From assembly GCA_016937015.1 (NCBI GenBank), contig JAFGWT010000062.1:2609-66608 (forward strand): a stretch of DNA of 64,000 bases. Direction: 5' to 3'. The notes beneath the pieces are model-generated. The model saw nothing but the letters and a program-made list of their open reading frames with translations. It was not told where the DNA came from and ran no database searches. The translations under genes were made by a program, and so were the position numbers. The stretch's first letter is position 1, and every line of letters starts with the position of its first letter. Source of the DNA: Deltaproteobacteria bacterium. GTDB lineage: Bacteria > Myxococcota_A > Polyangia > JAAYKL01. This document shows positions 40,082 to 62,427 of the stretch, one piece after another.

Positions 40082-40163
40082 TCGTCAGGAAAAGTTAATA
40101 TTGGATTGCTATTTTCTTATTAAATAAAAATGACGTCGGACGTAGTCATCACTGAAAACATCT

Positions 40164-41573: not shown

Positions 41574-41663
41574 GTTCAGCATCCACACCTTCAGCGATTT
41601 GGTCAGCATGTGAAGCGATATTCAGGAAATCAAATCAGACAACACGTGGTCAATTTTTACCTA

Positions 41664-41795
41664 AGCGTTAAAATCACGCATATACGGGATACGGCGACCT
41701 GAAGAATTCCGGGTTTGCGCGACTGCCAATTTTTCGCTGCGTGCAAATCACGCACTTTTTTCCACATTTCAACTCACCAGCGTGAAAATCACTCG
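41664..41795 (+). promoter_or_regulatory. Three tandem dyad-symmetric sites (GCGTG-N5-CACGC family), candidate enhancer/UAS for a sigma-54 activator
   Basis: 'aGCGTTaaaatCACGCA' (41664-41680), perfect palindrome 'TGCGTGcaaatCACGCA' (41738-41754), and 'aGCGTGaaaatCACTCG' (41779-41795). All lie 240-370 bp upstream of the -24/-12 element. Confidence 0.45.
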
Positions 41796-42027
41796 TCCAT
41801 GTGCCCTATATGCGCGAGATTCAAACAGGTATTCCTTTACCCGGGTAATGGTCGATTCAAACCTGATTTTTCGATATTGCAACCCGAAATGGGCCGGTAC
41901 TCCTTAGCATCATCCCAGTAATCCAGCGAACTCAACTATCTCAAGAGATTGAAAATATTATACAAATCCAAAAGAAGCGCAATCAGTGGCAAATCCTGGG
42001 AGATAATAAAACGGTTATCGGGCGTGA

Positions 42028-42046
42028 ATAGGCATCAATCCTGCAA
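42028..42046 (+). promoter_or_regulatory. Candidate sigma-54 (-24/-12) promoter for the activator gene at 42100
   Basis: 'aGGCATcaatccTGCAa': GG and GC elements with the canonical 10-nt spacing, ~55 nt upstream of the start codon. Confidence 0.4.
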
Positions 42047-42099
42047 AAGAACCTTGCAGCCTGATTGTTGTAGTCGGGATTATTTTGGAGGAACAACCC

Positions 42100-43092
42100 A
42101 TGACAACCCAGAACGACTTTAGCTCGGAGATAATCGGAAACTCAACTGCACTTCTATCTGTACTAAAAAAAGCCAAACAGGTTGCTCCTACGGACTGCAC
42201 CGTACTGATAACGGGTGAGACCGGCACTGGAAAGGAACTGCTGGCGCGCGGACTTCATATGAGCAGCAACAGGAAGGACAAACCCTTTGTTGCCGTCAAT
42301 TGCGCCGCCCTGTCCAAAGATCTGCTCGAAAGTGAACTATTCGGCCACGTTCAGGGCGCGTTCACCAGCGCCATGCGAAATCGTGAAGGACGCTTTCAAA
42401 TCGCCGATGGCGGGACCATTTTCCTTGATGAAATTGGTGAACTGCCGCTGGATCTTCAGGGAAAACTGCTTAGAGTGCTGCAATTCAAGGAATTTTCGGC
42501 GGTAGGCGAATCAAGAGTCAGACACGTGGACGTTAGAATCATTGCGGCGACAAACGCCAATCTGCTTCACGCTGCAAACGCTGGTCATTTCAGGCAGGAT
42601 CTTTATTATCGTTTAAACGTAATTCAATTGAAACTGCCGTCTCTAAAGGAACGCCCCGGCGACATCAAGGATTTGTGCGACCATTTTATCAACAAAGCGT
42701 CAAGACGATATAACAAACCGCTCGTTGCATTAAGTGATGCCGCTTTAAAGCAAATTACCGCTCACCACTGGCCCGGTAACATTCGGGAGCTCGAAAACGC
42801 AATGGAACATGCTGTTCTAATCGGCATTGAATCAGAGATACAGGTAGAGGATCTGCCCTTCTTCGATGAAACGAATGCAGAGACAATGGTGGATTTCATC
42901 CGGCCGCTTACGGACGAAGGTCTGAACCTTCAAAATACACTGCGAAACATTGAAGCGCATTACATTCAGGCAGCTCTTGATTACACGGACGGAAACAAAA
43001 ACCAGGCCGCGACTCTGTTGGGACTCAATCGCACAACTCTTGTCGAAAAAATCAAACGCGGCTTGCCCGATAATCTGTCAAACGTGGGTTAG
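42100..43092 (+). CDS. Sigma-54-dependent transcriptional activator without receiver domain (AAA+ plus Fis-type HTH)
   Basis: 'GETGTGKELLARGLH', 'GAFTSA', 'RQDLYYRL', and C-terminal 'AATLLGLNRTTL'. GGAGG lies 8 nt upstream of the ATG at 42100; the ORF-track TTG start at 42085 is less likely. Confidence 0.85.
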   Translation: MTTQNDFSSEIIGNSTALLSVLKKAKQVAPTDCTVLITGETGTGKELLARGLHMSSNRKDKPFVAVNCAALSKDLLESELFGHVQGAFTSAMRNREGRFQIADGGTIFLDEIGELPLDLQGKLLRVLQFKEFSAVGESRVRHVDVRIIAATNANLLHAANAGHFRQDLYYRLNVIQLKLPSLKERPGDIKDLCDHFINKASRRYNKPLVALSDAALKQITAHHWPGNIRELENAMEHAVLIGIESEIQVEDLPFFDETNAETMVDFIRPLTDEGLNLQNTLRNIEAHYIQAALDYTDGNKNQAATLLGLNRTTLVEKIKRGLPDNLSNVG

Positions 43093-46055: not shown

Positions 46056-47606
46056 TCACGTGGCACATGAGCCGGTCGTTCGATTCACCAACTCGAGCAA
46101 TAATCGAATATCCACGTTTTCGCCAACAACTCTCGCCAGGTTGTCATACGCAGCGGTGTGGGTAGCAGAGATGCCGAGCGTATCACCGAGCGTATCAAAT
46201 GAAGTCGAAACGGGTTGAGGCAACGAAAACAGATCAGGACGCACCTTGGCGATATAAGTGTCCAAAAAGATCTGACTGTCAAAAATACCGTGGAGATATG
46301 TTCCAAAGATGTGCCCATTCGCCGATATGACGCCATCGGTCTGGCCAGAATCTTCGAACTGAATGGCGTGATTTACCTCACCGGTTGCAGCCGTTTGTCC
46401 ATGGTGAATTTCATACCCCCAAACCGGCGTCCCGTCTGGCAGCCACGTCCCTTTCTGAAGACGAAGCTGCTTTTCTTCAGCCAGCACGGTCACCACATTC
46501 AACAATCCAAGTCCCGCCACCTCTTTTTCGTGCCCTTCCACGCCGTGCGGATCTTCCACACGATCCCCCAGTATCTGATACCCGCCGCATATTCCGACAA
46601 GATGCCCACCATCCTGGGCGTATGTTTTTATTTTGTCTGACAATCCAACCTGTTTAAGCCACTGTAAATCACCACACACATTTTTGGTGCCAGGCAATAT
46701 GACAACGTCATATTTTGAAAGCGTCTGGTTCCGTCTGACATAGGTAACCCGGATGTCCCTGTGCTTTTCGAGAGGCGCAAAATCAGTGAAATTTGAAATA
46801 TGAGGCAAATGGATCACCGCAATTGACACGACACTCGACTTACCACAGTTGTCCGCTTCGAACGAATCAAGCACGACCGCATCCTCGCTATCCACTCCAA
46901 TATCGTGGATATAAGGAATAATACCAAGCACCGGCAATCCCGTTCGCTGTTCTATAAAGTCAACTCCGTCCCTGAAGAGTGAAGCATCACCTCTGAATCG
47001 ATTGATAATCACCCCAACGACATGTTTTCGTTCCTCAACGGACAACAATTCCAGAGTACCAATGATCTGTGCAAATACACCGCCTCTGTCAATATCCGCA
47101 ACAAGAATTACCCGTGCATTTGCTGCGGTAACCATTGCAAAATTAACAAAATCCCTGGGTTTCAGATTCACTTCAGCGCAGGATCCCGCGCCTTCCATCA
47201 CCACCATCTCATACTTATCCCGAAGGCGTTCCAATGCATCAATCGATATCTGCTTCAAATCCCCCGTGCGCTGGCCGTATGCCACAGCGGAACTTTCGCC
47301 TACCGCTTTCCCCAATACCACCACCTGGGCGCCAACATTGCTGACCGGTTTTAGCAATACCGGATTCATATCCACATGTGGCAGCACCCCGGCCGCCTCA
47401 GCCTGCACGACCTGAGCACGTCCGATTTCACCCCACTCGCCATTATGCCCCTTCACAACATATGAATTATTGGACATATTCTGAGCCTTAAACGGAGCGA
47501 CAGATATACCCATATCTCGAAAAATTCGACAAAGCGCTGTGACGACAACACTTTTACCGACGTCAGACGCCGTGCCGAGTACACTGATGCATGTTGCCTT
47601 TTTCAT
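46056..47606 (-). CDS. cobQ: Cobyric acid synthase
   Basis: 'MKKATCISVLGTASDVGKSVVVTALCRIFRDMGISVAPFKAQNMSNNS' and a C-terminal GATase domain. The start ATG overlaps the cobS stop. Confidence 0.9.
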   Translation of the reverse strand: MKKATCISVLGTASDVGKSVVVTALCRIFRDMGISVAPFKAQNMSNNSYVVKGHNGEWGEIGRAQVVQAEAAGVLPHVDMNPVLLKPVSNVGAQVVVLGKAVGESSAVAYGQRTGDLKQISIDALERLRDKYEMVVMEGAGSCAEVNLKPRDFVNFAMVTAANARVILVADIDRGGVFAQIIGTLELLSVEERKHVVGVIINRFRGDASLFRDGVDFIEQRTGLPVLGIIPYIHDIGVDSEDAVVLDSFEADNCGKSSVVSIAVIHLPHISNFTDFAPLEKHRDIRVTYVRRNQTLSKYDVVILPGTKNVCGDLQWLKQVGLSDKIKTYAQDGGHLVGICGGYQILGDRVEDPHGVEGHEKEVAGLGLLNVVTVLAEEKQLRLQKGTWLPDGTPVWGYEIHHGQTAATGEVNHAIQFEDSGQTDGVISANGHIFGTYLHGIFDSQIFLDTYIAKVRPDLFSLPQPVSTSFDTLGDTLGISATHTAAYDNLARVVGENVDIRLLLELVNRTTGSCAT

Positions 47607-48385
47607 ATTGACCTCAGCCACAAAGCCCAAGGCCAGTGCAGCCATCCGAAATGATGCAGCCAGGCACTGAATAAAAACAGCATCGCCATTTCGACAATCT
47701 CACTCGATGCGCCCAGCAAATCTCCGGTAACGCCACCAAGCTGTCTTTTAAACCACAGGCTCAGATACTTCCCAGTAATAAATGCAACAACAATGGCCGC
47801 CGCACACAGGGGACCGAATCCCGCCACGAAAAACAATGCCGCCAGCCAGGCAATAAGGCGGTGTTTTGATGATGCGTCTGTCACAAATCGCTTTGCAGTG
47901 CCTGAGTCGGCGCGGGCATAGGAGAGCGTGGCCGCCAGGTCAACCTGTACAGTCCGCGATAGTATCATCGCAACAATTATCAGTTGCATTTCGCCCGATT
48001 CCATCAATTTACACAGCAACAGCCATTTCAACATCAATGACCCAATCAATGCAAGCACACCAAACGTTCCAAGACGCGAGTCCTTCAATATTTCCAGCTT
48101 GCGCGCTTTGTCCTTCATACTGAACAATGCGTCCGCCGAGTCCGCCAGACCATCCAGATGAATTGCGCCGGTAAATCCTGTCTGCGCCAGCAACACAACC
48201 ATGGCCGTTAAAAATATCCAATCCGGAAAAATAATGCTGAACAAAAGATACACGCCATACAGCATGGATCCCAGAATTGCGCCCACCAAAGGAAACCAGG
48301 GCATTGCCGTCGCGAGCGAGGGCGCATCTTTCCCAGGTATGCGAAAAACGGTCAGGGTGCGAATGGCGCTGACGATTCCAGACAT
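47603..48385 (-). CDS. cobS: Adenosylcobinamide-GDP ribazoletransferase (cobalamin synthase)
   Basis: Polytopic membrane protein; N-terminus 'RTLTVFRIPGKDAPSLATAMPWFPLVGAILG' is typical of CobS. Confidence 0.9.
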   Translation of the reverse strand: MSGIVSAIRTLTVFRIPGKDAPSLATAMPWFPLVGAILGSMLYGVYLLFSIIFPDWIFLTAMVVLLAQTGFTGAIHLDGLADSADALFSMKDKARKLEILKDSRLGTFGVLALIGSLMLKWLLLCKLMESGEMQLIIVAMILSRTVQVDLAATLSYARADSGTAKRFVTDASSKHRLIAWLAALFFVAGFGPLCAAAIVVAFITGKYLSLWFKRQLGGVTGDLLGASSEIVEMAMLFLFSAWLHHFGWLHWPWALWLRSI

Positions 48386-48388
48386 TTG

Positions 48389-49480
48389 TTACGCTGCACC
48401 TTCATCGACACTGTTCACTTCACCGGAAACACCGGCAGAGCTGAAGGTTGCCATTTCGCGCATCATCTTCACTGCCGCATCAATCAGTGACATTGATAAC
48501 GCGGCGCCGGTGCCTTCTCCCAAGCGAAAACCGAGATCCAGCAGCGGCTTAGCCCCCATCTCTTTGAGAAAAGTCCGATGGCCTCTTTCGGCAGAAAGAT
48601 GACTGAAAAATAAATAGTCCGCAATGCTGGGGCATAGTCTGCAGGCGACCAGTGCGGCAGCAGACGAAATGAATCCATCAATCAGTATGGCGATGCGGTG
48701 GGCTGCAGAACCGAGGATTAGCCCGGCAAGGCCGGCAATTTCCAGACCGCCAACTGTCGAAAGGGTTTTGAGCGGGTCTTCGTCGCCTTTATTTGTCGTC
48801 AGACCATGTCGTTTAACAGCTGCAGCGATGGCAGTGCGCTTTCGCTGAAGTCCTGCATCATCAATACCTGTGCCTCGCCCAATGATGCCATCCAACGCAC
48901 ACGGCAATAAAACATGCATGAGCGCAGCTGAAGCTGTAGTATTGCCAATCCCCATTTCGCCCGTGCCCATCAGCGTGACGCCATCCTGAGCGGCCTCGTC
49001 TGCCAGCTCCACACCCACCTGAAGTGCCGCCAGCATTTCATCAGGGTGCATCGCCGGCCCACTTACCATATTGCCTGTGCCATGTCTGATTTTTCTGTGA
49101 ATCAATCCGCCAATCTCCGAAAGATCTCCATTAACCCCAATATCAACAATCCGCACATCACACCCCACATGGCGGCCAAATACATTTATCGCCGCACCGC
49201 CGTTGACCATGTTGGAAACCATCTGTTTTGTCACTTCACCGGGAAAGGCCGATACGCCCTCCTCGACAACACCGTGGTCCGCGGCAAACGTATACAGTCT
49301 TTTAACGGGCATATCCGGAATAACCTGCTGCCTGATTCGGGCATATCGAAATCCTGCCTCTTCCAGCTGGCCCAGAGACCCCACAGGTTTAGTCAAATCA
49401 TTAATGTGCCTTTTTATGGCATCATCCAACGCCAAAGGGATGGGATGGATTCGGCGAATTGTTGTATCAATCAAAGTCAT
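48389..49480 (-). CDS. cobT: Nicotinate-nucleotide--dimethylbenzimidazole phosphoribosyltransferase
   Basis: CobT-family length and motifs ('GEMGIGNTT', 'GHDVGG'-like region). Lies in the cobU-cobT-cobS order. Confidence 0.9.
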   Translation of the reverse strand: MTLIDTTIRRIHPIPLALDDAIKRHINDLTKPVGSLGQLEEAGFRYARIRQQVIPDMPVKRLYTFAADHGVVEEGVSAFPGEVTKQMVSNMVNGGAAINVFGRHVGCDVRIVDIGVNGDLSEIGGLIHRKIRHGTGNMVSGPAMHPDEMLAALQVGVELADEAAQDGVTLMGTGEMGIGNTTASAALMHVLLPCALDGIIGRGTGIDDAGLQRKRTAIAAAVKRHGLTTNKGDEDPLKTLSTVGGLEIAGLAGLILGSAAHRIAILIDGFISSAAALVACRLCPSIADYLFFSHLSAERGHRTFLKEMGAKPLLDLGFRLGEGTGAALSMSLIDAAVKMMREMATFSSAGVSGEVNSVDEGAA

Positions 49481-49483
49481 TTG

Positions 49484-50026
49484 TTAATCCTTCGTCGTTC
49501 TCTCAACAGGCTTCTTTACCCAAACGGGGCAACCACTTACCATAAATACGACCTCTGTGGCACGAATGGCAACGTCCTGATTTAATCTCCCCGCCACATC
49601 ACGAAACCACCTCCCCATCTCATTTTCAGGAACCAGTCCCATTCCAAGCTCGTTTGAAACCAGCGCCACGTCGCAGGGCGGATGTTCGAGAATTTTCAGA
49701 AGCCGTTGCATCTCACGGTATGGCCATGCACCCTGCCCCAGGTGGTGCATCAGATTGCCCAGCCATACCGTAAGGCAATCAATCAGTACAAAATCCACCT
49801 GACTGTCAGACAGCTCAAGTATTCTGGCAGGGTCCAGCGGCTCCTCCACCGTGGTATACAAATCCCCGCGCTCATGCCGGTGCTTATCAATCCGCAATGC
49901 CATCTCCGCATCGGTGACCTCTGCGGTGGCGAGGAATACGGGGCGACTGTATTCCTGACCGAGCGTCAAACCAAACCGACTCTTCCCGCTTCTTGCCCCG
50001 CCCGTAATCAGAGTGACTTTACCCAT
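49484..50026 (-). CDS. cobU: Bifunctional adenosylcobinamide kinase / adenosylcobinamide-phosphate guanylyltransferase
   Basis: P-loop 'LITGGARSGKSRF'; 180 aa. Confidence 0.9.
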   Translation of the reverse strand: MGKVTLITGGARSGKSRFGLTLGQEYSRPVFLATAEVTDAEMALRIDKHRHERGDLYTTVEEPLDPARILELSDSQVDFVLIDCLTVWLGNLMHHLGQGAWPYREMQRLLKILEHPPCDVALVSNELGMGLVPENEMGRWFRDVAGRLNQDVAIRATEVVFMVSGCPVWVKKPVERTTKD

Positions 50027-50892
50027 TTGGTGAATCCTTTCATGAAGTTCATCGAAGACACAAAATGGTCTGTTCCGAAAACCTCCATGGTCAACACGCG
50101 TTCAATTGTTGAAGCGTTTAAACTGCGCATCAATTTTGTCATTAGCGCTTCTGGCAGGTGAGCAAGGGAACAGTGGTCTGTTCCATTTTCAATACCGTGC
50201 AAATGAATCACCCTTGCCCGCTCCAGGTATCGCGTCAAATACTGTTCGAGGGAGTATCGGTTCAGCAATACATGACCAATATCAAGACAGACAGATACAT
50301 CACATGCGGTTACAACGGGATAAATATCCTCGAACGGGTAGGACAGATTTTCAACGCAAATATCCCGTGCCAATATGCCGCTTTCGGTGAGCACGATGTT
50401 GACAGATTCAATGCATCGCCGTTGCCAGTTCCATATTCCATCTGCAGTATTGCTATCAGCCAGGCGGGGTTGAGGCGGTAAATGCAACACATACGCAAAC
50501 GGATGAAGTGGCTGGGTCAGCGCTATAATGCGCAAACACTGAATCACACTGCGATGTCGCTCGTTGACATCATGAGCCCCCAAATCGATGTCAAGGGGGA
50601 AGTGTATGGTGTACGACAGCGAATGCGCGTCACTCACCTGGCGCATCGTCTCAATGACTGATACATCGGGCAGATTGGAATACTGCTCCGACTCAAACAG
50701 CACCACCTCAACATCGTCAACCAATCCTGCCAATGCGCGAATATTGGGTTCCAAATCCGCGGGAATCACATAGGACGTGGCGCCCAGTCTGAACCGAAAC
50801 GCACCGGCAAGACTAACGACAGACTCCGGCAACTCATTTGAATGCAACTCATTCATCATTGATTTCAGCGTTGATTTCAGCGTTCGAAACAC
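50008..50892 (-). CDS. Xylose-isomerase-like TIM-barrel (AP endonuclease 2 superfamily) protein, possibly a CbiR-like cobamide-remodelling enzyme
   Basis: TIM-barrel sugar-phosphate-isomerase-like pattern of conserved His/Asp/Glu ('VIHLHGIENGTDH'). Embedded between the B12 transporter genes and cobU-cobT-cobS. Confidence 0.5.
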   Translation of the reverse strand: MFRTLKSTLKSMMNELHSNELPESVVSLAGAFRFRLGATSYVIPADLEPNIRALAGLVDDVEVVLFESEQYSNLPDVSVIETMRQVSDAHSLSYTIHFPLDIDLGAHDVNERHRSVIQCLRIIALTQPLHPFAYVLHLPPQPRLADSNTADGIWNWQRRCIESVNIVLTESGILARDICVENLSYPFEDIYPVVTACDVSVCLDIGHVLLNRYSLEQYLTRYLERARVIHLHGIENGTDHCSLAHLPEALMTKLMRSLNASTIERVLTMEVFGTDHFVSSMNFMKGFTKWVKSL

Positions 50893-52019
50893 ACCATAAT
50901 GGGCGGAAGACCAACATCAATAGGCGATGCTGTCAATTCCTGTGCAGTATGTGTATCAAAGATACGGATCCCCGGATTAAAAAAGTTGCGATCGGTCACC
51001 CAGATTTCGGACTCGCCATTAAGTGACATATAGGACAAATCGTAACCAGCTGATGAAATAAGAGTTTCGCCTTTGAATCCAGTCATGGGATTAAACGTGA
51101 CAAGCCGTGTTGCAGCACCTGTGGCTGTCGGCTCGCTGATGATTGCGAATCCCATATCAGGTGCAGTAACAATTGCGTCGATAATATCGCCCCCCAGCGT
51201 CGCTTCAGTGATTATCATCCCGCTCAAAGTGCCATCGAGGGTCATCGTTTCGATGCCACCATCCAGCACACCATAAGATCCTGTTTCGGTTAAAATAAAT
51301 GCGGACAGGGGGGTGTTGTAGCGTAAAATCCCCGTTGGATTTTTACCGTTCAAAATCACTTCCCGCTCGATAGCGTATGTGGCGGGATTGATAATCAATA
51401 GCGCGCTGTAATCTGTTGGCGCCCAGTACATATCAAGTCGCTGGAGTGTCACATAAACTTTGCCGTCCCTGAAAATGGCCTGCGACGCCTCAGGATTTCC
51501 ATCCGAATCCGCATATGCCGACAAATCCACGCGCGCAATTTCTGTACCCAACGTGGGATGAACGACAAGGAGTTCAGGGGAACCAATTCTGGGAACCACT
51601 GCTCTGCCTGGTCCAATAACGGCGATATCCTGGGCATTGGTGCCTGCTTCAACGGAATATTGCGCCATCGGTTTATAACCGGCATCTTCATTCAGTACGG
51701 TTATGGCATCTGAACCAAACCTGGAAATCACAAAAATGTGACCGGTTACTTCATCGTATCGGCAAATTGAGTCGGAATGAATAACCTGCGTGTTACGTTG
51801 AACAACGCGGGTCTCGGCAGTGACAACTGACACCGCGCCAGTGCTGTAATCAGTGGTCACAACAATCCCTGTGTCGCCCACGGTATTGACTTCAATGTCA
51901 TCGACATCGCCCGAGTCACATCCAGCCAGAATAAAAACTGACAACAGCAATGACAGCACAGTCACCGAGCAGTTCAATTTCAAATTAGATTTCATTTTCA
52001 TCTCAATACTTCCTTTCAA
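50877..52019 (-). CDS. Surface/periplasmic beta-propeller lipoprotein (YncE-like), candidate cobamide-binding accessory protein of the B12 uptake locus
   Basis: Lipobox 'VFILAGCDSG', repeated beta-rich blades, sited directly downstream of the riboswitch-controlled TonB-dependent receptor. The start may be the Met at ~52001. Confidence 0.6.
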   Translation of the reverse strand: MKGSIEMKMKSNLKLNCSVTVLSLLLSVFILAGCDSGDVDDIEVNTVGDTGIVVTTDYSTGAVSVVTAETRVVQRNTQVIHSDSICRYDEVTGHIFVISRFGSDAITVLNEDAGYKPMAQYSVEAGTNAQDIAVIGPGRAVVPRIGSPELLVVHPTLGTEIARVDLSAYADSDGNPEASQAIFRDGKVYVTLQRLDMYWAPTDYSALLIINPATYAIEREVILNGKNPTGILRYNTPLSAFILTETGSYGVLDGGIETMTLDGTLSGMIITEATLGGDIIDAIVTAPDMGFAIISEPTATGAATRLVTFNPMTGFKGETLISSAGYDLSYMSLNGESEIWVTDRNFFNPGIRIFDTHTAQELTASPIDVGLPPIMVCFER

Positions 52020-52032
52020 ATATAACGAAATT

Positions 52033-54216
52033 TCAAACCTTAAAACGCAGTGTCACAAATACACTTCGGCCAGGCAGCGGAAATGCCAGGTAATCCCGAA
52101 GAGGTCGTTGTCTTCCTGTGCTGTCTTTCAGCAATATGCTATTGAGCAAATTCTTTATTTCCAGCGTTACGGTCAGTTTAGCAGGTATGATTTCCAGCTG
52201 CCAACCTGCGCCGAGCAGTGCACGCCCCAGTACGTCCTGTGTAAAATTGGCCTGGTCCAGAAAATTATTGCCGGCATAATCCACATCGAGCCAAAGCTCG
52301 TTCCTGACTGAACCGATGGTGCCTTTCAATGTAGACTTAAGATATGCTTCGTGGATAGGGCGACCAGGTAGTCTATTCCCCGCGTAGAATCCAATTTCGG
52401 AGCGATTAACCGTTTGCATGTACGTGTAATTTCCCGACAAAGATAAATGGGACCACAACGTGGCCTCCGCCGATATCTCCAGACCAAGTATCCGCGCTGC
52501 ATGCACATTTTCGGCACGAATGGTATTTTGCGAATTCTGAACAAACGCAATCAACTGCTCGCTCCATGTGCCAAATGTCCCTGCATATATCTGGGCGGTA
52601 TTCACTGCTGTATCTGTGTTTGCTTCGAAAGTGTATTTAATGCCCGCATCGGCATTCAGGCCTTCTTCGGCCTTCAGTTCGGGATTGCCCACAACGGTGC
52701 CGCGATCACCAAACAATTCAAACAGGTCCGGAGTTCGAAGATACTTTCCAACATTTGACAAAAAGCGGTGCCGCCTGGTCAGCTGCCAACTGATACCCAA
52801 AGACGGCATAATGTGTTGGTCTGAGAGCTCAATCGTACGAACCTTTTGTTCCCCCATCGCGGGTGGCAGCTCAGCTGTATACCGATCGGCCTGGGATCGC
52901 AGCGACGGCACAATCTTCAAGCCGTTTTGGGGAATCCAGCTAAAATCAATTCCACCTCCCAACCGCTGACGGTATCCCGGTTTCAGAGGCAACAAATCCT
53001 GTGCATCCACGAAATCAAATGTATCAAGGCTGCCTTCCACCCGGGTGGCGAACTGATATTTCCGTGTGCCAAAATGCCAGATGCTGTGGCCTAAAACCGT
53101 ATGCGCAATGGCATGGGAGTGCTGGTGCCCAACGCCAATTTCATCTAAAGGATCTTCGAACCGGTTCTGCTGTTGTATGTAGCCGAGCGACCACATCAAA
53201 GACTGTTGTTTATTCCATTCGCGTTCTCCCTGAACTGCTGCAAGCTCACGCAGACAGAACAAAGATGCTTTTTCGACGGGCACACTGTCAATTCCGGCAA
53301 CACCTTGATTTTTCATGTGCAGGCTGTTTAAAAAGGTTAGCCGCATTTTTCCCACGTATGTTGAAAGTTTCAGCAATGTGGACACAGACTGCTGTTCATT
53401 GTTTTTTCGACGAACGATCTCATCATCCGTCGTGTTCAACTCGGTGCCATTTCGGTTGAGATATTTAAAATCGCCCCTTGATCCCATTACGGAAACCAAC
53501 GCAAAAACGTCCACCCGTCCCGTGGTTGAACGATGAAGTGCGGTTGCCTTGCCCGAATGCCAGGACCCGTACCCTGCACTGTATTCTGTTGTCTCATTAC
53601 TCCCATTCCCTGTATTCAACGAAATCGCCCCACCAATGCTGCCCAGACCAAGTGAGACGGGAGTGGTCCCCCTATACACATCCACTCTGTCAAACATTTC
53701 CAGAGTTAAATCGCTGAGGTTCACAGTGGAAAAACCACCTGAGTTCAGCAAAATGCCGTCAATGAAAATAAGCACCTGCGCAGCGTCTGACCCGCGAATA
53801 TGGGCCGTCGTGTAGGATCCAGGGCCTCCGGCGGATCGAACCTGTATACCAACTCCCGGACCAAGTACTTCACTGACAGTAGTGTTTCGGCTGTTCAGTT
53901 CCGAGACATCAATGGATTCTCCCGCAGCGGTACCGTCATCCACTGGCGACAGGGGCAAGCCGTGAATGTTCGTTTCGTAAGTGTCCAGAGTTGTGTCATC
54001 ATCCAAATCCGGCGACACCATGGACGCATCGGCAAACGCACTCCAGTCGATGTCACTTTGAGCCAGGGAATCATCTGTTATATTATTCGAAGACGAGGCA
54101 ACGACATCAGACGCCGAGGCGCCCGTGCAAAAAAACAGGATGATTGTTAAACGCCCGAAAAACAGGAGGAAACGGGTTCCCCAACTGCGTGACGGTGCGG
54201 GGAAATGACAGATCAT
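52033..54216 (-). CDS. btuB: TonB-dependent outer-membrane receptor, BtuB-like (cobalamin)
   Basis: Signal peptide from the internal Met ('MICHFPAPSRSWGTRFLLFFG...ASA'), plug and 22-strand barrel features, C-terminal 'VTLRFKV'. Preceded by a cobalamin riboswitch; the ORF-track N-terminal extension to 54363 runs into the riboswitch and is rejected. Confidence 0.85.
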   Translation of the reverse strand: MICHFPAPSRSWGTRFLLFFGRLTIILFFCTGASASDVVASSSNNITDDSLAQSDIDWSAFADASMVSPDLDDDTTLDTYETNIHGLPLSPVDDGTAAGESIDVSELNSRNTTVSEVLGPGVGIQVRSAGGPGSYTTAHIRGSDAAQVLIFIDGILLNSGGFSTVNLSDLTLEMFDRVDVYRGTTPVSLGLGSIGGAISLNTGNGSNETTEYSAGYGSWHSGKATALHRSTTGRVDVFALVSVMGSRGDFKYLNRNGTELNTTDDEIVRRKNNEQQSVSTLLKLSTYVGKMRLTFLNSLHMKNQGVAGIDSVPVEKASLFCLRELAAVQGEREWNKQQSLMWSLGYIQQQNRFEDPLDEIGVGHQHSHAIAHTVLGHSIWHFGTRKYQFATRVEGSLDTFDFVDAQDLLPLKPGYRQRLGGGIDFSWIPQNGLKIVPSLRSQADRYTAELPPAMGEQKVRTIELSDQHIMPSLGISWQLTRRHRFLSNVGKYLRTPDLFELFGDRGTVVGNPELKAEEGLNADAGIKYTFEANTDTAVNTAQIYAGTFGTWSEQLIAFVQNSQNTIRAENVHAARILGLEISAEATLWSHLSLSGNYTYMQTVNRSEIGFYAGNRLPGRPIHEAYLKSTLKGTIGSVRNELWLDVDYAGNNFLDQANFTQDVLGRALLGAGWQLEIIPAKLTVTLEIKNLLNSILLKDSTGRQRPLRDYLAFPLPGRSVFVTLRFKV

Positions 54217-54314
54217 TACAACCCAACCCTTGTACGCGAAGAGCAGTGTTATACATTGTTGCCGATAACTTCGATAACAATGCGTTGAAATCCCGTCTGG
54301 ATATCCTGGCTTCC

Positions 54315-54475
54315 GGGTTCGATATTTTATCGTGTCGCATTCCGCCTTCCCAATTGCATGCAATCAGTGGCCTATGGAATGAACCCCGGTTCACAGTGGC
54401 GCGACCGCGCCGGATTCTCACCGGCTTCCCCAACCGAAATTTCATAATTGGATTTTCAATCACAGCAACCAGCTG
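54315..54475 (-). promoter_or_regulatory. Cobalamin (AdoCbl) riboswitch in the 5' leader of btuB
   Basis: Minus-strand sequence 'GGGGAAGCCGGTGAGAATCCGGCGCGGTCGCGCCACTGTGAACCGGGG ... GCCACTGATTGCATGCAATTGGGAAGGCGG' matches the conserved cobalamin-riboswitch core, including the B12 box GCCACTG. Confidence 0.85.
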
Positions 54476-54518: not shown

Positions 54519-56288
54519 TCAACCGTTCTGGTTTTGCAATCGGGTTTGGGCAGGCAGTTCGATAGTAAAAGTAACCCCTTCCCCAGGCCGTGATTGCACA
54601 TCCAGAGTGCCTTTGTGAGAGTCAGTGATGATAAAATACGATACCGACAATCCCAGACCAGTCCCTATTCCTGGCGCCTTGGTCGTGAAAAAAGGTTCAA
54701 AAATTCTGTTCTGAACCACCATGTCCATTTCGGGACCGTTATTGGCAATGGATATTATCGCTGTTCCAATGGATGAAGAAATCGAAATCTCAAAACGCGG
54801 GTCATCAATTGCGGCGTCGTTCATTGCTTCTGCGCCGTTTCGCAAAATATTCAGCAGAACCTGCTGAATCATACTGACATGACAGCGTATCTCCACATCC
54901 GTGCCGTCGGAATGCATCAGAATCTGAATTTTGCGAAAATCGTATTTTTTCTTTAAGTCATACTCATTGCGAGCCAGTTCAAGTGCTTCGTTAATCAAAT
55001 TTTCAACCCGAACCACTTGCATTTCACCACTTTCTTTTCGGGCGAACGACAACATGTTGTCAACGATGCGCGCCGCGCGCTTGCCACTTTTCGAAATGGC
55101 GTCCAGCAGTTGAAAAATGCTTTTTTTCTCCATATATCGATAAAGCGCGTTCAAATCCAGACCACACGCTTTCGCATCGTTTCTGTTTTTGTCCGTCTGA
55201 TGAACCAGTCGGCTTTCAAGCACCTGTGAACTCTGGAGAATCCCCGCCAAAGGATTGTTTATCTCGTGGGCCATTCCAGCAGCCAGTCCACCCACTGATA
55301 TCATCTTCTCGGTATGCACCATCAACGCTTCAAACCGTGCCTGTTCAGTCACATCGTCCATTCGAATAACAGCCCCAACGGCCTGCCCAGGAATCAGTGG
55401 GTACACCACCAGATTATACTGTCGTTCCGGCCTGTCATTTAGCAGGGTAATCTTCTTTTGAATGACGGCATCGCCGCCGGATGCGACCTGCGCCAGGGTG
55501 GTATACAGGGATGGAAGCAGTGTGAAAACCTTTCGAAAAGGGCAATTCATCGCATCTGCTGACGCCACGCCCGTAAGCGCTTCCGCTTCAAGATTCCATC
55601 CGGTGACTCGCATTGCCTCATCCACACTCATGAGCACCGATGGCATACTGTTAACTGTTCGGTTCAACAGCAGCCGGGTCGCGTTGACTTCCTTCATATC
55701 TGCCTTGATTCTTTCAAGCGCCCGTTGATTGGCAGTGTAAATGGCATTGCTTATCACAGCCAGAAAAAGCAGCGCGACGCCTGTATCGGTGGCATAGTCA
55801 CGCAAGCCCAGCGCTGTCATCGTTCCCTGACGATACTCGTTGTAGCAAAATGCGACAAAGAAAATAAAGTTGACAGCGTGAAACAGCCACAGCTGAAGGC
55901 GATGAGAAAGAGTGAGAAGCGGAATGGTGGAGAGAATTGCAAATCCAATCGCAATTGTGTCCACCCGCGCAACAGGATCTTCGGATTGGTCAATAAACAT
56001 CACCGCCCACATGCCGGCAAGAAATGCCCAAATCATCAATTGACCGGCGGCGGCAAGGCGCTTTTTCCAAAGCAGCCACAAATCAAACACACTGATCCCC
56101 CAAAGAGCAACGATAATGAATCGAATGGAATCAAATGGACTTTGCAGCAAAAAGATATTGAACGCGAGCAACACGGGCAATGCAATGAGCAACAGAATAT
56201 TGACAATCTGCAGATATTTTGCCTGCAACTGCATCGCATAATCGTCATTGCTGTATCGCGTCAGTATACTCGGAAATCCCATAAACAT
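54519..56288 (-). CDS. Sensor histidine kinase with multi-pass membrane N-terminal domain and PAS domain
   Basis: ~6 hydrophobic segments, a PAS-like region, HisKA 'LAAGMAHEINNPLAGIL', and an HATPase_c with 'GTGLGLSVSYFI'. Confidence 0.85.
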   Translation of the reverse strand: MFMGFPSILTRYSNDDYAMQLQAKYLQIVNILLLIALPVLLAFNIFLLQSPFDSIRFIIVALWGISVFDLWLLWKKRLAAAGQLMIWAFLAGMWAVMFIDQSEDPVARVDTIAIGFAILSTIPLLTLSHRLQLWLFHAVNFIFFVAFCYNEYRQGTMTALGLRDYATDTGVALLFLAVISNAIYTANQRALERIKADMKEVNATRLLLNRTVNSMPSVLMSVDEAMRVTGWNLEAEALTGVASADAMNCPFRKVFTLLPSLYTTLAQVASGGDAVIQKKITLLNDRPERQYNLVVYPLIPGQAVGAVIRMDDVTEQARFEALMVHTEKMISVGGLAAGMAHEINNPLAGILQSSQVLESRLVHQTDKNRNDAKACGLDLNALYRYMEKKSIFQLLDAISKSGKRAARIVDNMLSFARKESGEMQVVRVENLINEALELARNEYDLKKKYDFRKIQILMHSDGTDVEIRCHVSMIQQVLLNILRNGAEAMNDAAIDDPRFEISISSSIGTAIISIANNGPEMDMVVQNRIFEPFFTTKAPGIGTGLGLSVSYFIITDSHKGTLDVQSRPGEGVTFTIELPAQTRLQNQNG

Positions 56289-56366
56289 GAGTGTAATTTA
56301 ACGTGTCCATGGGCGTGCAGCAAGTTGCAGCGACGTTACGTTGTCAGAAGGCAGACTGAAACACAT

Positions 56367-56840
56367 CTATTTTGTTGCTGTTTCAGAAGCGGGTGTTTCC
56401 GCCTTGTCGCTGCTGTCATCTTCCTGGACGATAATATGACGAGTCGTGTAATCCGTGCCGTTAAGAATAATCTGCTGGCCAGTACGCAATTCCGGGTCAA
56501 GGGCCAGCGGTGCAAGCAGATTTACAGTAATGGGGTGTGGCGCCGGTGGAACAACAGCAATTACCGCCGCTCCGATGTCCTTTGGCGTTCGCTTATTTGT
56601 GGATAACGCCTCCCGCAGCTTATCCATTGGGTAGTCCGGATCCAGTAACAGCGGATCCACCACCACAAACGCCATTTCGGGTTCAATCGTGGACTGAATC
56701 CACTTGAATGGGGAGCCGGGATTGTGTTCCAGCACCACAAAATGAGTAAAATCCGGAAAGCCGATGATCCCATCAGAAAAGTGAAATACATCCGCTTCAT
56801 TCAACTCTAATTCACCAAATCGGGTCGTTGAAACTTTCAC
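56367..56840 (-). CDS. fliW: Flagellar assembly factor FliW
   Basis: 'FGELELNEADVFHFSDGIIGFPDFTHFVVLEH' is typical of FliW. Adjacent to csrA. Confidence 0.85.
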   Translation of the reverse strand: MKVSTTRFGELELNEADVFHFSDGIIGFPDFTHFVVLEHNPGSPFKWIQSTIEPEMAFVVVDPLLLDPDYPMDKLREALSTNKRTPKDIGAAVIAVVPPAPHPITVNLLAPLALDPELRTGQQIILNGTDYTTRHIIVQEDDSSDKAETPASETATK

Positions 56841-57103
56841 TTTTTCTCTCCATCAGATGCGGGATTCTTCTGAATCGACAATTTACCAATCGACAGTCTG
56901 CCGTCAAGTTGCTCCATGGCGGCTGCCGCAGCGCGTTTATTTTCTTCCATAATCTCCATGTGTATTTCCATCCGGTTCACCGGAATATTTCGCGGTGTAT
57001 CGATGGCCAGTCTTACGTTTCTCCCTCGAATTTCCTTCACTGTCACAACAATGTCATTACCAATAACGATACTTTCGCCCTTTTTTCTGCTTAAAACTAA
57101 CAT
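56837..57103 (-). CDS. csrA: Carbon storage regulator CsrA
   Basis: 'MLVLSRKKGESIVIGNDIVVTVKEIRGRNVRLAIDTPRNIPVNR' is the near-canonical CsrA fold sequence. Confidence 0.9.
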   Translation of the reverse strand: MLVLSRKKGESIVIGNDIVVTVKEIRGRNVRLAIDTPRNIPVNRMEIHMEIMEENKRAAAAAMEQLDGRLSIGKLSIQKNPASDGEKK

Positions 57104-57135
57104 ACGCCTTATGCCTTCCTGGCTTTGCGCAGCGG

Positions 57136-58014
57136 CTACAGGTGGGTAAGCAATGTGTTGTCCGTCACCTTTCTGGCAACACTCATTGCTTCCTGCAACG
57201 CGCTGGCGGTTTCGTTCAATCTCATGAATGTATCTACCGGGTCAATATCGATCACAGAAGATTCCTCTTTCGTCAAGCTATCTTCCAAAGTCTGACGCAC
57301 ATTTTCCGAAACGTCCAGGCGATTTAATTTCAATCCCACATCAGTTCGCACATTGGTGACCTGAGCAATGCAGGTATCCAGCGTTCCGATGGCCGTTTGG
57401 ATGCCCACATCGTCATCAGCCAGAAGCGCTGTCCGAAGCGCCTCCAGTTCCGCAAAAACGTCGATGCCGCCAACCAAAGTGAATGCGTTTTCTCCTGAAA
57501 CACCCACCTCCGCGCGGCTGGATGGCCCTACATCGACTTCCTTTATATTGCTGTCACCAACATAGGTGCCATCGGGCAAAAACGGCCGGGTATCGGTCAT
57601 AAAACCGGCAAAAATAAATTCCCCTGCGGCCTCAGTGTTCGCCACGGTCAGCATCGATTCATACAGACTCTCCACTTCCTGCGCACTGATTGTCCGCTCC
57701 GGCGGCGCTGTCAGTTCATTTCCCATGGCCAATGCGATTTCCTTGGCGCGTATCAGCAGATTGGTGGCTTCTTCCAGCGCGGTATCCGCTGTATCAAGCT
57801 GTGTTTTTGAACGGGTGATATTTGTCTCATAATGAAGCGTCGCCTGTTTGGCCTCTCTAAGCATTCGCACTCGCTCTGCGCTGACCGGGTCTGTATCAAT
57901 GCCCTGAAATTTCTTTCCGGTCGCTGACTGCTCCTGAAGTTCAAACAGATTGCTGCGCTGCCCCGCCACGTCCCGTGTTCCCCGTCTGTAAATCATCTGG
58001 TCAGTGATTCTCAT
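57136..58014 (-). CDS. flgL: Flagellar hook-associated protein 3 FlgL
   Basis: 'MRITDQMIYRRGTRDVAGQRSNLFELQEQSATGKKF' N-terminus and flagellin-like N/C helices. The ORF-track start at 58035 would overlap flgK. Confidence 0.85.
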   Translation of the reverse strand: MRITDQMIYRRGTRDVAGQRSNLFELQEQSATGKKFQGIDTDPVSAERVRMLREAKQATLHYETNITRSKTQLDTADTALEEATNLLIRAKEIALAMGNELTAPPERTISAQEVESLYESMLTVANTEAAGEFIFAGFMTDTRPFLPDGTYVGDSNIKEVDVGPSSRAEVGVSGENAFTLVGGIDVFAELEALRTALLADDDVGIQTAIGTLDTCIAQVTNVRTDVGLKLNRLDVSENVRQTLEDSLTKEESSVIDIDPVDTFMRLNETASALQEAMSVARKVTDNTLLTHL

Positions 58015-58027
58015 CGCACATCTCCCG

Positions 58028-59428
58028 TTACGCACCCATACTCAAAATGGTCTGGATCATCTGATCCGTGGTGGTGATGATTCTGGCTGACGCCTGGTAT
58101 GCCCGCTGGTATGCGAGCATGAAAGTCAACTCCTCATCCATTGCAACGCCGGACGCCGAATCGCGAATCGTTTCCACATTCGCAATGGTGTTCTGGGTCA
58201 CTTTGGTGGAATCGTTCGCTCGTCTGGCATCCACCCCCACCTGTCCCACAATATTGGCATATGCTTCATTGAAGGTAAGGGTGCCACCGGACGCAAGTAA
58301 CAGCTCCGGAATATTGGCCATGGCAATGGCGTTCACGTTATCGCCCGAAGCGCCGGTCGCTGCGCCCGCCGCCGCGAGGTTCTCCGGAATGCCATCCACG
58401 TCTGCTGAAAGTGCCATATTCTGTGCGGCGTTGGCAACCACACCACCCAGATCCGCGAAGAAGTTGCGTCCGCCAACCGCGTCAAGACCGAACCCCGCTG
58501 CGTGCTGTGCATTGAAAGCCACTGTAATATCGTACGCCAACTGATCGAATTCCGTCTGATATACAGGAATAATATTATCACGCAGGTCGATGGTTCCGCC
58601 CATGCGGGAGCCGACGAGTCGATTGGTAATATTTGTTGTGGCGCCATTGGATGAGACATACTCCACCTGCGCGGTGCCCGGAGCGGCCGTCGGACTGACG
58701 TACAGGGTTGAAAAGCCGTTGTCTTCAACCAGCGGCATTCCGCCTTCGAGAAAAACAGTGTATTGCCCATCATTATTCTCGATATAATTTACATGCACGT
58801 GTTCAGACAGTTCCAGCACGAGTCGGTCTCTGGTATCCTGATTATCCGACGCATCGTGCCCCAGCGCCAGTTGCATTGAAATCTGTTTATTCAGCTCAGC
58901 GATCTCCTCCACACGTGAATTCACCTCCGAAGCGCTGGTCCGCAATAAATCGTCAAGGCCACGCCGCACCCCTTCCATTTCGGTGGATACCCGATCAAAG
59001 GTTTCGGTCAGTTCCTCGCCACGAACCAGCACCTCCATGCGCGATGTTAAATCCGACGGATTTGATTCCAGAGTGCGAAGTGCTCCAAAGAAATTGTCCA
59101 GCGCCGCCCCCAACCCGGTATCCTGAAGGTCGTTGAAGAGATCACTCACATGCTCAAGGATTTCTGACTGCTGTTTGAAAAAGCCAAGACTGCTCTCTTC
59201 CTCGATTAGACGAGCCGAAGCAAATTCATCAACGTATCGAACAATACCCTGTACGTCCACCCCGCCCCAGTCGCCCTGCGCCTCCAGCATCAGCTGCTTG
59301 CGGCTATACCCTTCGGTATTTACATTGGCGACGTTCTGCCCGACCACATTAATCCCCACCTGCTGACTCATGAGCGATTGTCGCGCGATGTGGAGATTAC
59401 CGATAATATTGCTCGTTAACACTGTCAT
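58028..59428 (-). CDS. flgK: Flagellar hook-associated protein 1 FlgK
   Basis: 'LHIARQSLMSQQVGINVVGQNVANVNTEGYSRKQLML' N-terminus and FlgK-like C-terminal helix. Confidence 0.9.
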   Translation of the reverse strand: MTVLTSNIIGNLHIARQSLMSQQVGINVVGQNVANVNTEGYSRKQLMLEAQGDWGGVDVQGIVRYVDEFASARLIEEESSLGFFKQQSEILEHVSDLFNDLQDTGLGAALDNFFGALRTLESNPSDLTSRMEVLVRGEELTETFDRVSTEMEGVRRGLDDLLRTSASEVNSRVEEIAELNKQISMQLALGHDASDNQDTRDRLVLELSEHVHVNYIENNDGQYTVFLEGGMPLVEDNGFSTLYVSPTAAPGTAQVEYVSSNGATTNITNRLVGSRMGGTIDLRDNIIPVYQTEFDQLAYDITVAFNAQHAAGFGLDAVGGRNFFADLGGVVANAAQNMALSADVDGIPENLAAAGAATGASGDNVNAIAMANIPELLLASGGTLTFNEAYANIVGQVGVDARRANDSTKVTQNTIANVETIRDSASGVAMDEELTFMLAYQRAYQASARIITTTDQMIQTILSMGA

Positions 59429-59437
59429 TGCAGCCTC

Positions 59438-59857
59438 TTACGCTATAATCTCCCGACGGGTAACAGGAGAGCGCATTTTTGCCGGTCGGTTCATGTATCC
59501 ATGCTGACCGTATGTTTGCGTTTGCCCGTTCATTTTAATCATCAGTGATAAAATGCCGGTGTAATACTGATGCATATGTTCAATCAGCAGATGATTTGAA
59601 TTTGCCAGGTCACGTACCTGCCGGCCAAGCCTGCGAATTTCCATCGCCAGATCGGTTTTTGGCGTTTTCAAACCCTCAAGCATGGTTGAAATTCGAAGTT
59701 TTTCCTCGGCCAGTTCTCCAACCAGTCTGGCGTCCCCTTTAAGAAGTGCGGTATTTTCCTTTTCCAGCACTGCCCGCATCTCCTGCAGCACCTGAATCAT
59801 AAGGCGCTCCTCAGTTTCAGCGCCGACGTTATTGGTGGTCGAAATACTTTCCATCAT
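59438..59857 (-). CDS. flgN: FlgN-like flagellar export chaperone
   Basis: 139-aa helical protein between flgM and flgK, the usual FlgN position. Weak sequence signature only. Confidence 0.5.
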   Translation of the reverse strand: MMESISTTNNVGAETEERLMIQVLQEMRAVLEKENTALLKGDARLVGELAEEKLRISTMLEGLKTPKTDLAMEIRRLGRQVRDLANSNHLLIEHMHQYYTGILSLMIKMNGQTQTYGQHGYMNRPAKMRSPVTRREIIA

Positions 59858-60155
59858 TTGCTCCGTCTGTCAGATAGGTGGCTTTAAATACGCGCTTCAA
59901 TTCCTTTTCGAGCATCTTTTTACTCGTTTCATACGGATCGGGCATGGGGCCATCGGCAGTTGTCTGAACCTGTTCCACAGCTTCAACCTGTTCCGTATGG
60001 GCTGCTGCCTGCGCGGCATCACTGAGTTCGACGGAATCAACATAGTCCACACTCTCCACTTTCCGTGTATTGGAAGACTGTGTCGAACCGTATTTTTTTT
60101 GGGCGCCACCGGTCTTGGATACTGATGAGCCACTTCCTGTTTTTGATACCTTCAC
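59829..60155 (-). CDS. flgM: Anti-sigma-28 factor FlgM
   Basis: ~100-aa disordered Ser/Thr/Gln-rich protein with a C-terminal 'VDSVELSDAAQAA' helix typical of FlgM. GGAGG RBS before a GTG start. Confidence 0.65.
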   Translation of the reverse strand: MKVSKTGSGSSVSKTGGAQKKYGSTQSSNTRKVESVDYVDSVELSDAAQAAAHTEQVEAVEQVQTTADGPMPDPYETSKKMLEKELKRVFKATYLTDGANDGKYFDHQ

Positions 60156-60193
60156 CTTGCACCTCCAGAGGTCTGCAAAAGGGTCTATCGTCT

Positions 60194-62421: not shown

Positions 62422-62427
62422 TCCTTT

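Follow-up and report, generated by a model that had tools for sequence, protein, structure and literature searches.

The BtuG proteins of Bacteroides thetaiotaomicron (BtuG1, BtuG2, and BtuG3; PF16819; structures 3DSM, 8BMY, 8BMZ, 8OKV, 8BLW, 8BMX, and 8P97) are seven-bladed β-propellers that carry an N-terminal lipoprotein signal and a linker, and their genes lie beside that of a TonB-dependent vitamin B12 receptor, behind a cobalamin riboswitch. The top face of the propeller forms a central B12 pocket and faces the receptor BtuB (PMC10404256). BtuG has been described as exclusive to the Bacteroidetes, and receptors capped in this way as apparently so (PMC6143338, PMC10404256). Homologues of two other accessory proteins, BtuH and BtuJ, have been reported outside the Bacteroidota (PMC13616437, PMC13398666), and a review from 2026 names these two, not BtuG, beyond that phylum (PMC13616437). 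Here, we describe a gene with the same lipoprotein signal, linker, predicted fold, and genomic setting in a 64-kb stretch of DNA from a Deltaproteobacteria metagenome-assembled genome (MAG; contig JAFGWT010000062.1), the whole of which is referred to below as the window. Judged by family profiles, the product of this gene is a remote homologue of BtuG, and it probably captures corrinoids and hands them to the receptor encoded next to it.

Surface lipoproteins that capture the ligand of a TonB-dependent receptor encoded with them have a precedent in the Proteobacteria, namely, TbpB, LbpB, and HpuA of Neisseria, although these have a bilobed fold unrelated to that of the window protein, take protein-bound iron as ligand, depend on Slam for export, and share no homology with it. 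XusB of Bacteroides, with its partner receptor XusA (9HQK, 9HQE; PMC13142918), is likewise a propeller surface lipoprotein that works with a TonB-dependent transporter. As a structural match to the window protein (Foldseek E 2e-9, TM score ~0.63), XusB is weaker than BtuG, and it binds a siderophore and belongs to an iron-uptake locus, whereas the window gene is accompanied by a cobalamin riboswitch and cobamide salvage genes. YncE of Escherichia coli (3VGZ) and an archaeal YVTN S-layer propeller (1L0Q) have the same seven-bladed YVTN-type fold but, unlike the window protein, no lipid anchor, receptor partner, or link to B12. BtuH, BtuJ (DUF4465), and BtuK of Bacteroides are accessory corrinoid binders from riboswitch-controlled B12 loci, and none of them is a receptor lid. 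The folds of BtuH and BtuJ, the latter a jellyroll, are unrelated to that of the window protein, while BtuK1 resembles that protein weakly in structure (9S6C, E 9.5e-9).

The propeller gene is a minus-strand open reading frame (ORF) with a maximal extent of 50877..52019 when read from a TTG codon. The ATG at 52001 is the likelier start, since an AAGGAAG Shine-Dalgarno-like motif lies 7 nucleotides before it, and it gives a product of 374 amino acids. The corresponding NCBI record (P0001, hypothetical protein JXX14_02960 from a Deltaproteobacteria MAG) is 100% identical over its 372 amino acids and begins at the next ATG, two codons later. Used as a single query, the window protein had no match in Pfam (even with E up to 1), in NCBIfam, or among the sequences of the PDB. 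Its N terminus, MKMKSNLKLNCSVTVLSLLLSVFILAG followed by C, is a canonical lipobox (L25-A-G-C28, with ILAG preceding C28), and at least 90% of the sequences in an alignment of 45 diverse homologues have Cys28. The features of the gene are as follows (AlphaFold2, AF2; predicted local distance difference test, pLDDT).

50877..52001, minus strand: BtuG-like seven-bladed β-propeller lipoprotein, 374 amino acids plus stop (ORF, AF2, Foldseek, profile, and hhalign)
51918..52001, minus strand: signal peptide and lipobox, residues 1-28, L-A-G-C28 (direct sequence reading)
51873..51917, minus strand: disordered acidic tether, residues 29-43, DSGDVDDIEVNTVGD (pLDDT <50 for residues 27-40)
50886..51872, minus strand: propeller domain, residues 44-372 (DSSP strand order of the AF2 model)

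The AF2 model, built from the 45-sequence alignment, had a mean pLDDT of 91.4 and a predicted TM score of 0.85. It is all-β, with about 28 strands that make up seven four-stranded blades over residues 44-372, and blade 1 is closed by the C-terminal strand 367-372. Blade 6 is complete, in contrast to that of BtuG2, which is two-stranded (PMC10404256). An earlier note on this DNA, made from the sequence alone, had proposed a β-propeller lipoprotein with a clear lipobox at this place, and both the minus-strand ORF with its L-A-G-C28 motif and the predicted seven-bladed structure bear this out. Cys80 (nucleotides ~51762-51764) and Cys371 (nucleotides ~50889-50891) co-vary in the alignment, where 26 sequences have both, 18 have neither, and 1 has only one of them. 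The pair, found mainly in lipoprotein-type members of ~370 amino acids, probably forms a disulfide joining the inner strand of blade 2 to the closing strand; such a staple across the propeller closure would be expected of a protein outside the cytoplasm. BtuG2 has only the C-terminal cysteine in common with this clade-specific pair.

The relationship to BtuG emerged from family profiles. When a profile of the 45 diverse homologues (A1) was run against the sequences of the PDB, the nine best matches were all BtuG1, BtuG2, or BtuG3, with E values from 8.9e-10 to 5.6e-7 (BtuG3 8P97_B, 8.9e-10; 8OKV, 1.4e-9; 8PUJ, 2.4e-9; BtuG2 8BMY, 2.3e-7; 3DSM, 5.6e-7). The first protein other than BtuG was YncE at 8e-4, five to six orders of magnitude weaker. 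A narrower profile of close homologues (A2) on its own barely found BtuG (E 0.009). We also aligned A1 with BtuG2 by hhalign, the BtuG side being a single full-length BtuG2 sequence taken from gut metagenome contigs; the recovered B. thetaiotaomicron protein has the lipobox VFGS, Cys32, and an MKWD export signal, in agreement with its published description (PMC6143338). The local alignment reached 95.3% probability (E 2e-8, blades 3-4) and the global alignment 97.8% (E 4.5e-12, 319 columns, 18% identity). Clade-specific hidden Markov models (HMMs) matched BtuG2 separately for the Myxococcota (2e-5) and for a branch from the Fibrobacteres-Chlorobi-Bacteroidetes superphylum (FCB-type; 4e-6), while a profile of six spirochaete sequences was not significant by HMM (E 0.82) and gave 87% by hhalign. 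PF16819 (DUF5074), the Pfam family of BtuG fragments, matched 6 of the 45 members weakly (best E 3e-4).

Structure comparison placed BtuG first as well. In a Foldseek search of the PDB with the AF2 model, ranks 1-16 were almost all BtuG1, BtuG2, or BtuG3, several of them B12-bound, with E ~3e-12 and TM scores of 0.66 by query and 0.73 to 0.76 by target. Two motifs are common to the families: LDGGIE here corresponds to TDGGYE in BtuG2, in the loop that holds the B12-contacting Tyr239, and the C-terminal VGLPPIMVCF corresponds to VGIIPGAFCW, the general form being VGxxPxxxC[FW]. Since the profile and hhalign matches are specific to BtuG where pairwise searches fail, and BtuG heads the structure matches, the window protein is best read, at the level of sequence, as a remote BtuG homologue and not as a convergent recruit. 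The earlier note had likened the gene to BtuG by position, had seen no obvious sequence relationship, and had suggested an independent recruitment. Pairwise searches are indeed empty, but the family profile finds BtuG first; the idea of independent recruitment is contradicted by the Myxococcota and FCB-type profiles, each of which detects BtuG2, and by the shared motifs. The structural comparison with BtuG that the note had called for came out in favor of the resemblance, with BtuG-B12 complexes at the top.

We then looked at where conservation falls on the propeller. Residues were classed by the strand order of the AF2 model as belonging to top-face loops (D-to-A and B-to-C), bottom-face loops, or strands, so that the pocket is placed by strand and loop topology rather than by atomic geometry. 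Across the 45 sequences, 32 of 93 top-face loop residues were at least 80% identical, compared to 4 of 53 in the bottom-face loops (Fisher p 1.5e-4, Mann-Whitney p 1e-5). The top face also holds all of the conserved polar residues (D51, D77, R94, D98, N122, D165, D167, E171, R188, D190, N221, D247, E266, and R338). Eight of these, D51, D77, R94, D98, N122, R188, N221, and D247, occupy the blade positions of the corrin contacts of BtuG2, whose contact residues have been published (bioRxiv 10.1101/2024.02.16.580637). The individual contacts of BtuG2 correspond to the window protein as follows.

Ser131 to Asn122: 96% conserved
Gln219 to Asn221: 84% conserved
Asp236-Gly-Gly to Asp247-Gly-Gly: loop conserved
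Glu55 and Phe58 to Asp51 and Tyr52: probable, alignment ambiguous
Gln93 to Asp77: probable, alignment ambiguous
Trp149 to Gly140: aromatic lost
Trp194 to Arg188: aromatic lost
Tyr239 to Ile250: aromatic lost

This pattern is suggestive, though not conclusive, of a putative corrinoid-binding site on the top face. Given the loss of the BtuG2 aromatics, the pocket would differ in its chemistry, being rich in Arg and Asp, though it would lie in the same place. Within the BtuG group itself, BtuG1 is only 24% identical to BtuG2, is also without the Trp194 contact, and makes more Arg/Glu ion-dipole contacts (bioRxiv 10.1101/2024.02.16.580637). Also on the top face, between blades 3 and 4, lies a near-invariant A-D-x-D-G-x-P-E loop (YADSDGNPE, residues 164-171, nucleotides ~51489-51512), in which D167 is conserved at 100% and D165, G168, and E171 at 96%. 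The loop resembles the DxDG metal-binding motif and was aligned to the MDMESGSTE loop of BtuG2.

The propeller gene is the second gene of a minus-strand operon in the order riboswitch, receptor, propeller, CbiR, CobU, CobT, CobS, CobQ, with overlaps or gaps of at most 31 nucleotides. The other elements of the operon are listed here.

54278..54453, minus strand: cobalamin riboswitch aptamer at the operon head (RF00174, 73.4 bits against a gathering threshold of 31.5, E 3.3e-16, full-length model)
52033..54216, minus strand: TonB-dependent outer-membrane receptor, BtuB-like, probable start ATG 54216 (Pfam Plug 1.6e-13, TonB_dep_Rec_b-barrel 9.4e-27)
50008..50892, minus strand: CbiR cobamide-remodelling phosphodiesterase, likely start near 50860 (NF041277, 265.8 bits against a cutoff of 105; Pfam AP_endonuc_2)
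49484..50026, minus strand: CobU adenosylcobinamide kinase/guanylyltransferase (PF02283 3.7e-52; NF004469 170 bits)
48389..49480, minus strand: CobT lower-ligand phosphoribosyltransferase (PF02277 6.4e-132)
47603..48385, minus strand: CobS cobalamin-5'-phosphate synthase (PF02654 3.5e-50)
46056..47645, minus strand: CobQ/CbiP cobyric acid synthase, the last gene of the operon (Pfam GATase_3 6.1e-59 and CbiA)

The riboswitch ends 62 nucleotides upstream of the probable ATG of the receptor. The receptor plug matched that of E. coli BtuB at 1e-13 and that of B. thetaiotaomicron BtuB3 at 5e-6; the receptor as a whole is only loosely BtuB-like, scoring 85.6 bits with TIGR01779, below the NCBIfam BtuB equivalog cutoff of 599.7. 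The BtuG-like placement between a riboswitch-regulated receptor and cobamide-remodelling genes, on which the earlier note had built its comparison, was confirmed. After CobQ, a glycoside hydrolase family 10 gene follows on the opposite strand, convergent with the operon. Neither BtuFCD nor CbiB turned up within the 64 kb of the window; in the closest relative (L001:7903-21254, 59% identity), the operon continues with CobD/CobC, CbiB, two BtuF, BtuD, and BtuC. Promoter and terminator scans of the locus gave matches at background level only.

The arrangement recurs in other genomes. A locus scan with A2, using one genome per species, yielded 71 loci, all in MAGs, and 72 were examined when L003 is included. 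The relatives as a whole come from MAGs or metagenomes, with no cultured carrier among them. The loci belong to Myxococcota/"Deltaproteobacteria", Eisenbacteria, Latescibacterota, Gemmatimonadota, Bdellovibrio, Thermodesulfobacteriota, Leptospiraceae, other Spirochaetota, and one Acidobacteriota-like lineage. A homologue of the window receptor adjoins the propeller gene in ~65 of the 72 loci, directly upstream and on the same strand except in L060, where the order is riboswitch, propeller, receptor. All-against-all clustering of neighboring ORFs left the receptor and the propeller as the only universal genes. Next in frequency were BtuF-like binding proteins directly downstream (11 loci), ATP-binding cassette (ABC) ATPases (10 loci), FecCD permeases (7 loci), and CobT/CobS, and in close relatives CbiR, CobUTS, CobQ, CobD, CbiB, and BtuFCD stand in a single operon. 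Cobalamin riboswitches were counted at Rfam gathering thresholds, a locus being testable if it had a receptor and intact 5' DNA.

53 loci: cobalamin riboswitch upstream of the receptor-propeller pair
12 loci: 5' region lost at a contig end
4 loci: no adjacent receptor
3 loci: receptor and upstream DNA present, no gathering-level match

A riboswitch was, therefore, present in 53 of 56 testable loci, and in L043, one of the remaining three, an RF00174 match of 24.4 bits, below the threshold, lies exactly upstream of the receptor. The co-occurrence across genomes that the earlier note had proposed to check is thus widespread. This linkage points to corrinoids as the ligand class, and against the siderophore that the structural match to XusB might have suggested. 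Three of the four receptor-less homologues, which are encoded at L042:6905-8050, L053:6893-8044, L055:6893-8044, and L070:3172-4620, are spirochaete copies that adjoin adenylate/guanylate cyclase genes, one of the cyclases having a regulatory propeller of its own. These receptor-less homologues may be paralogues with a different role.

The homologues differ in how they appear to be anchored. Myxococcota-type members are lipoproteins of ~370 amino acids ending in VGLPPxMxCF, whereas FCB-type members have ~470 to 500 amino acids, and 34 of 38 of these long forms end in a type A sorting domain of the type IX secretion system (T9SS; TIGR04183), which implies surface display for the FCB-type branch; in many of the long forms, the N-terminal Cys column is present as well. 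By analogy with these relatives, an extracellular role of the window protein is plausible. The residues after the lipobox Cys are strongly acidic, CDSGDVDD here and CDDDDS, CDEDST, CEEETD, or CSDDDD in relatives (P0004, P0006-P0009, P0018, P0058, P0059, and others). In these non-Bacteroidota hosts, the acidic run resembles the export signal of Bacteroidota, and we treat it as a resemblance only. We also considered whether Asp at position +2 might serve as proof of retention in the inner membrane, and rejected this because the signal in Myxococcus xanthus is Lys+2 (PMC3222651).

Several observations weigh against the reading of the window protein as a corrinoid-capturing relative of BtuG. Identity to BtuG is only ~13 to 18%, and the window protein itself has no match to DUF5074 or to any other Pfam or NCBIfam model, the family as a whole falling below the DUF5074 threshold. 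The pocket aromatics of BtuG2 (Trp149, Trp194, Trp272, and Tyr239) are not conserved, Trp272 not being reliably mappable, and the alignment of blades 1-2 to BtuG is ambiguous. In Foldseek, generic YVTN propellers follow closely behind BtuG (1L0Q, 6.7e-12), and four loci, from Leptospiraceae, Spirochaetota, and Polarisedimenticolia, have the propeller gene with neither receptor nor riboswitch. Finally, surface exposure of BtuG depends on an export signal defined only for Bacteroidota (PMC6143338), so that surface export in the window organism cannot be deduced from such a signal. The low identity, the different aromatics, and the silence of pairwise searches would suit a protein that does the job of BtuG with an unrelated propeller, recruited independently into B12 loci, and propeller folds have been recruited repeatedly in evolution. 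We, nevertheless, give this convergence very little credence, because the profile-sequence and profile-profile tests are significant and specific to BtuG, the DGG loop and the C-terminal VGxxPxxxC[FW] motif are common to both families, some members match DUF5074 weakly, and the FCB-type branch, which sits in the superphylum of the Bacteroidota, scores slightly closer to BtuG. That the protein is a generic YncE/YVTN propeller with a role unrelated to corrinoids (an enzyme, an adhesin, a structural protein, or a binder of another receptor ligand, such as a siderophore in the case of XusB) and only incidentally in this operon is improbable too. The near-equal Foldseek values of the S-layer YVTN protein, NirF (1.7e-10), XusB, and YncE (9e-9) speak for it, as do the automatic annotations of relatives by the Joint Genome Institute (JGI) as YncE, BamB, or streptogramin lyase and the four loci without receptor and riboswitch. 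They are countered by the riboswitch-receptor-propeller synteny in nearly all testable loci of several phyla, by a profile preference for BtuG over YncE of several orders of magnitude, by conservation concentrated on the face that binds the ligand in BtuG, and by a riboswitch that is specific for cobalamin and not for iron. The YVTN matches, which include a sub-threshold YVTN repeat (TIGR02276) in one homologue, fit a shared superfamily ancestry in which BtuG is the closer relative.

A role in B12 uptake on the periplasmic side, with the protein anchored either in the inner membrane or in the inner leaflet of the outer one, from where it would stabilize the receptor or take over corrinoid from it, fits the riboswitch and the receptor synteny equally well. 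The Asp after the lipidated Cys (CDSGD) is the inner-membrane retention signal of E. coli (PMC3222651), 25 of the 68 lipoboxes detected have an acidic residue at this position, and no export pathway for surface lipoproteins is known for the window lineage. However, M. xanthus not only uses Lys+2 but exports lipoproteins beyond the outer membrane (PMC3222651), the T9SS sorting domains place most FCB-type homologues outside the cell, and the nearest characterized relatives, the BtuG proteins, are surface-exposed lids (PMC6143338, PMC10404256). The periplasmic position is, moreover, already filled by separate BtuF-type proteins directly downstream in 11 loci. We, therefore, regard a periplasmic role as unlikely, and prefer capture of corrinoids by a BtuG homologue at the outer membrane.

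Corrinoid capture by a BtuG homologue would proceed as follows. When intracellular B12 is low, the riboswitch would be in the ON state, as expected from what is known of RF00174, and the whole operon would be expressed. The preprotein would receive its lipid at Cys28, and the acidic disordered linker of ~15 residues would serve as its tether to the outer membrane. The top-face cavity of the propeller may recognize corrinoids by the corrin ring, as BtuG does, and not by the lower ligand, and the lipoprotein, which synteny suggests would sit over the co-encoded receptor, would pass the corrinoid on for TonB-driven import. By the logic of the pathway, CbiR, CobU, CobT, CobS, and CobQ would strip the imported corrinoids and rebuild them into the cobamide needed. 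Such strip-and-rebuild enzymes downstream fit with capture regardless of the lower ligand. If this is correct, the operon joins a capture protein, probably blind to the lower ligand, to CbiR remodelling in a scavenge-then-rebuild module.

Compared with BtuG, the window family shares fold, ancestry, and genomic logic; what is new is its occurrence in other phyla, a pocket that differs in chemistry, and another mode of surface attachment in one large branch. The literature searched, in which an earlier description may have been missed since the search was incomplete, held no description of BtuG-like proteins outside the Bacteroidota, and T9SS attachment was not described there for any transporter lid. 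Clustered at 50% identity, the matches of an exhaustive profile search formed 1,425 clusters at an E limit of 1e-30, 2,880 at 1e-10, and 4,309 at 1e-3, the weaker tiers probably taking in true DUF5074/BtuG proteins. A broader proposal, on which we find ourselves evenly divided, is that BtuG-type lids are an ancient and widespread strategy of Gram-negative bacteria, with at least 1,400 clusters in Myxococcota, Eisenbacteria, Latescibacterota, Gemmatimonadota, Spirochaetota, Bdellovibrionota, and others, and with a large branch attached through the T9SS besides or instead of a lipid. If the family works as proposed, high-affinity extracellular capture of B12 at outer-membrane transporters would be common in bacteria of soil, sediment, and groundwater, and models of cobamide competition outside the gut would change. 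Thousands of genes now called "hypothetical" would gain a better annotation, and studies of corrinoid recognition would have very divergent BtuG pockets to compare, Arg/Asp-rich versus Trp-rich.

Another domain, of ~220 amino acids and matching NF033170 ("LIC_13355 family lipoprotein"), is found repeatedly in the B12 loci, either fused to the C terminus of the propeller (P0017, P0035, and P0043, residues ~395-620) or encoded by a separate gene. It was found at L010:7969-8982, L018:2361-4286 (fused), and L043:433-1341 (minus strand), with weaker matches at L013:3130-4800, L014:3732-4739, L017:571-1854 (between riboswitch and receptor), L015, and L019. The domain had no match in Pfam or the PDB, and AF2, run on the P0017 fusion with three sequences, left it unfolded (pLDDT ~25). 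By analogy with BtuH, which is fused to BtuG1, it may be a second corrinoid-handling accessory.

Directly upstream of the riboswitch, at 54519-63267 on the minus strand, the window encodes a PAS histidine kinase together with a flagellar cluster (FliW, an FlgL-like flagellin-family protein, FlgK, a rod-binding protein, FlgI, and FlgH), and CheA and two sigma-54 activators are encoded at 37313-43092. The flagellar genes imply that the host of the MAG is flagellated, which would be unusual if it belongs to the Myxococcota, as the labels of the closest homologues suggest. Several of the related loci have two cobalamin riboswitches each, namely, L060 (1110-1320 and 4337-4549), L005 (2862-2982 and 11406-11584), and L017 (316-444 on the minus strand and 503-715 on the plus strand). 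The last of these, from a Deltaproteobacteria MAG, also carries four Acido-Lenti-1 RNA motifs (RF01687, 43 to 51 bits) at 1943-1987, 2052-2097, 4412-4456, and 9550-9594 (minus strand), which lie partly inside the receptor ORF region and have the appearance of a dispersed repeat.

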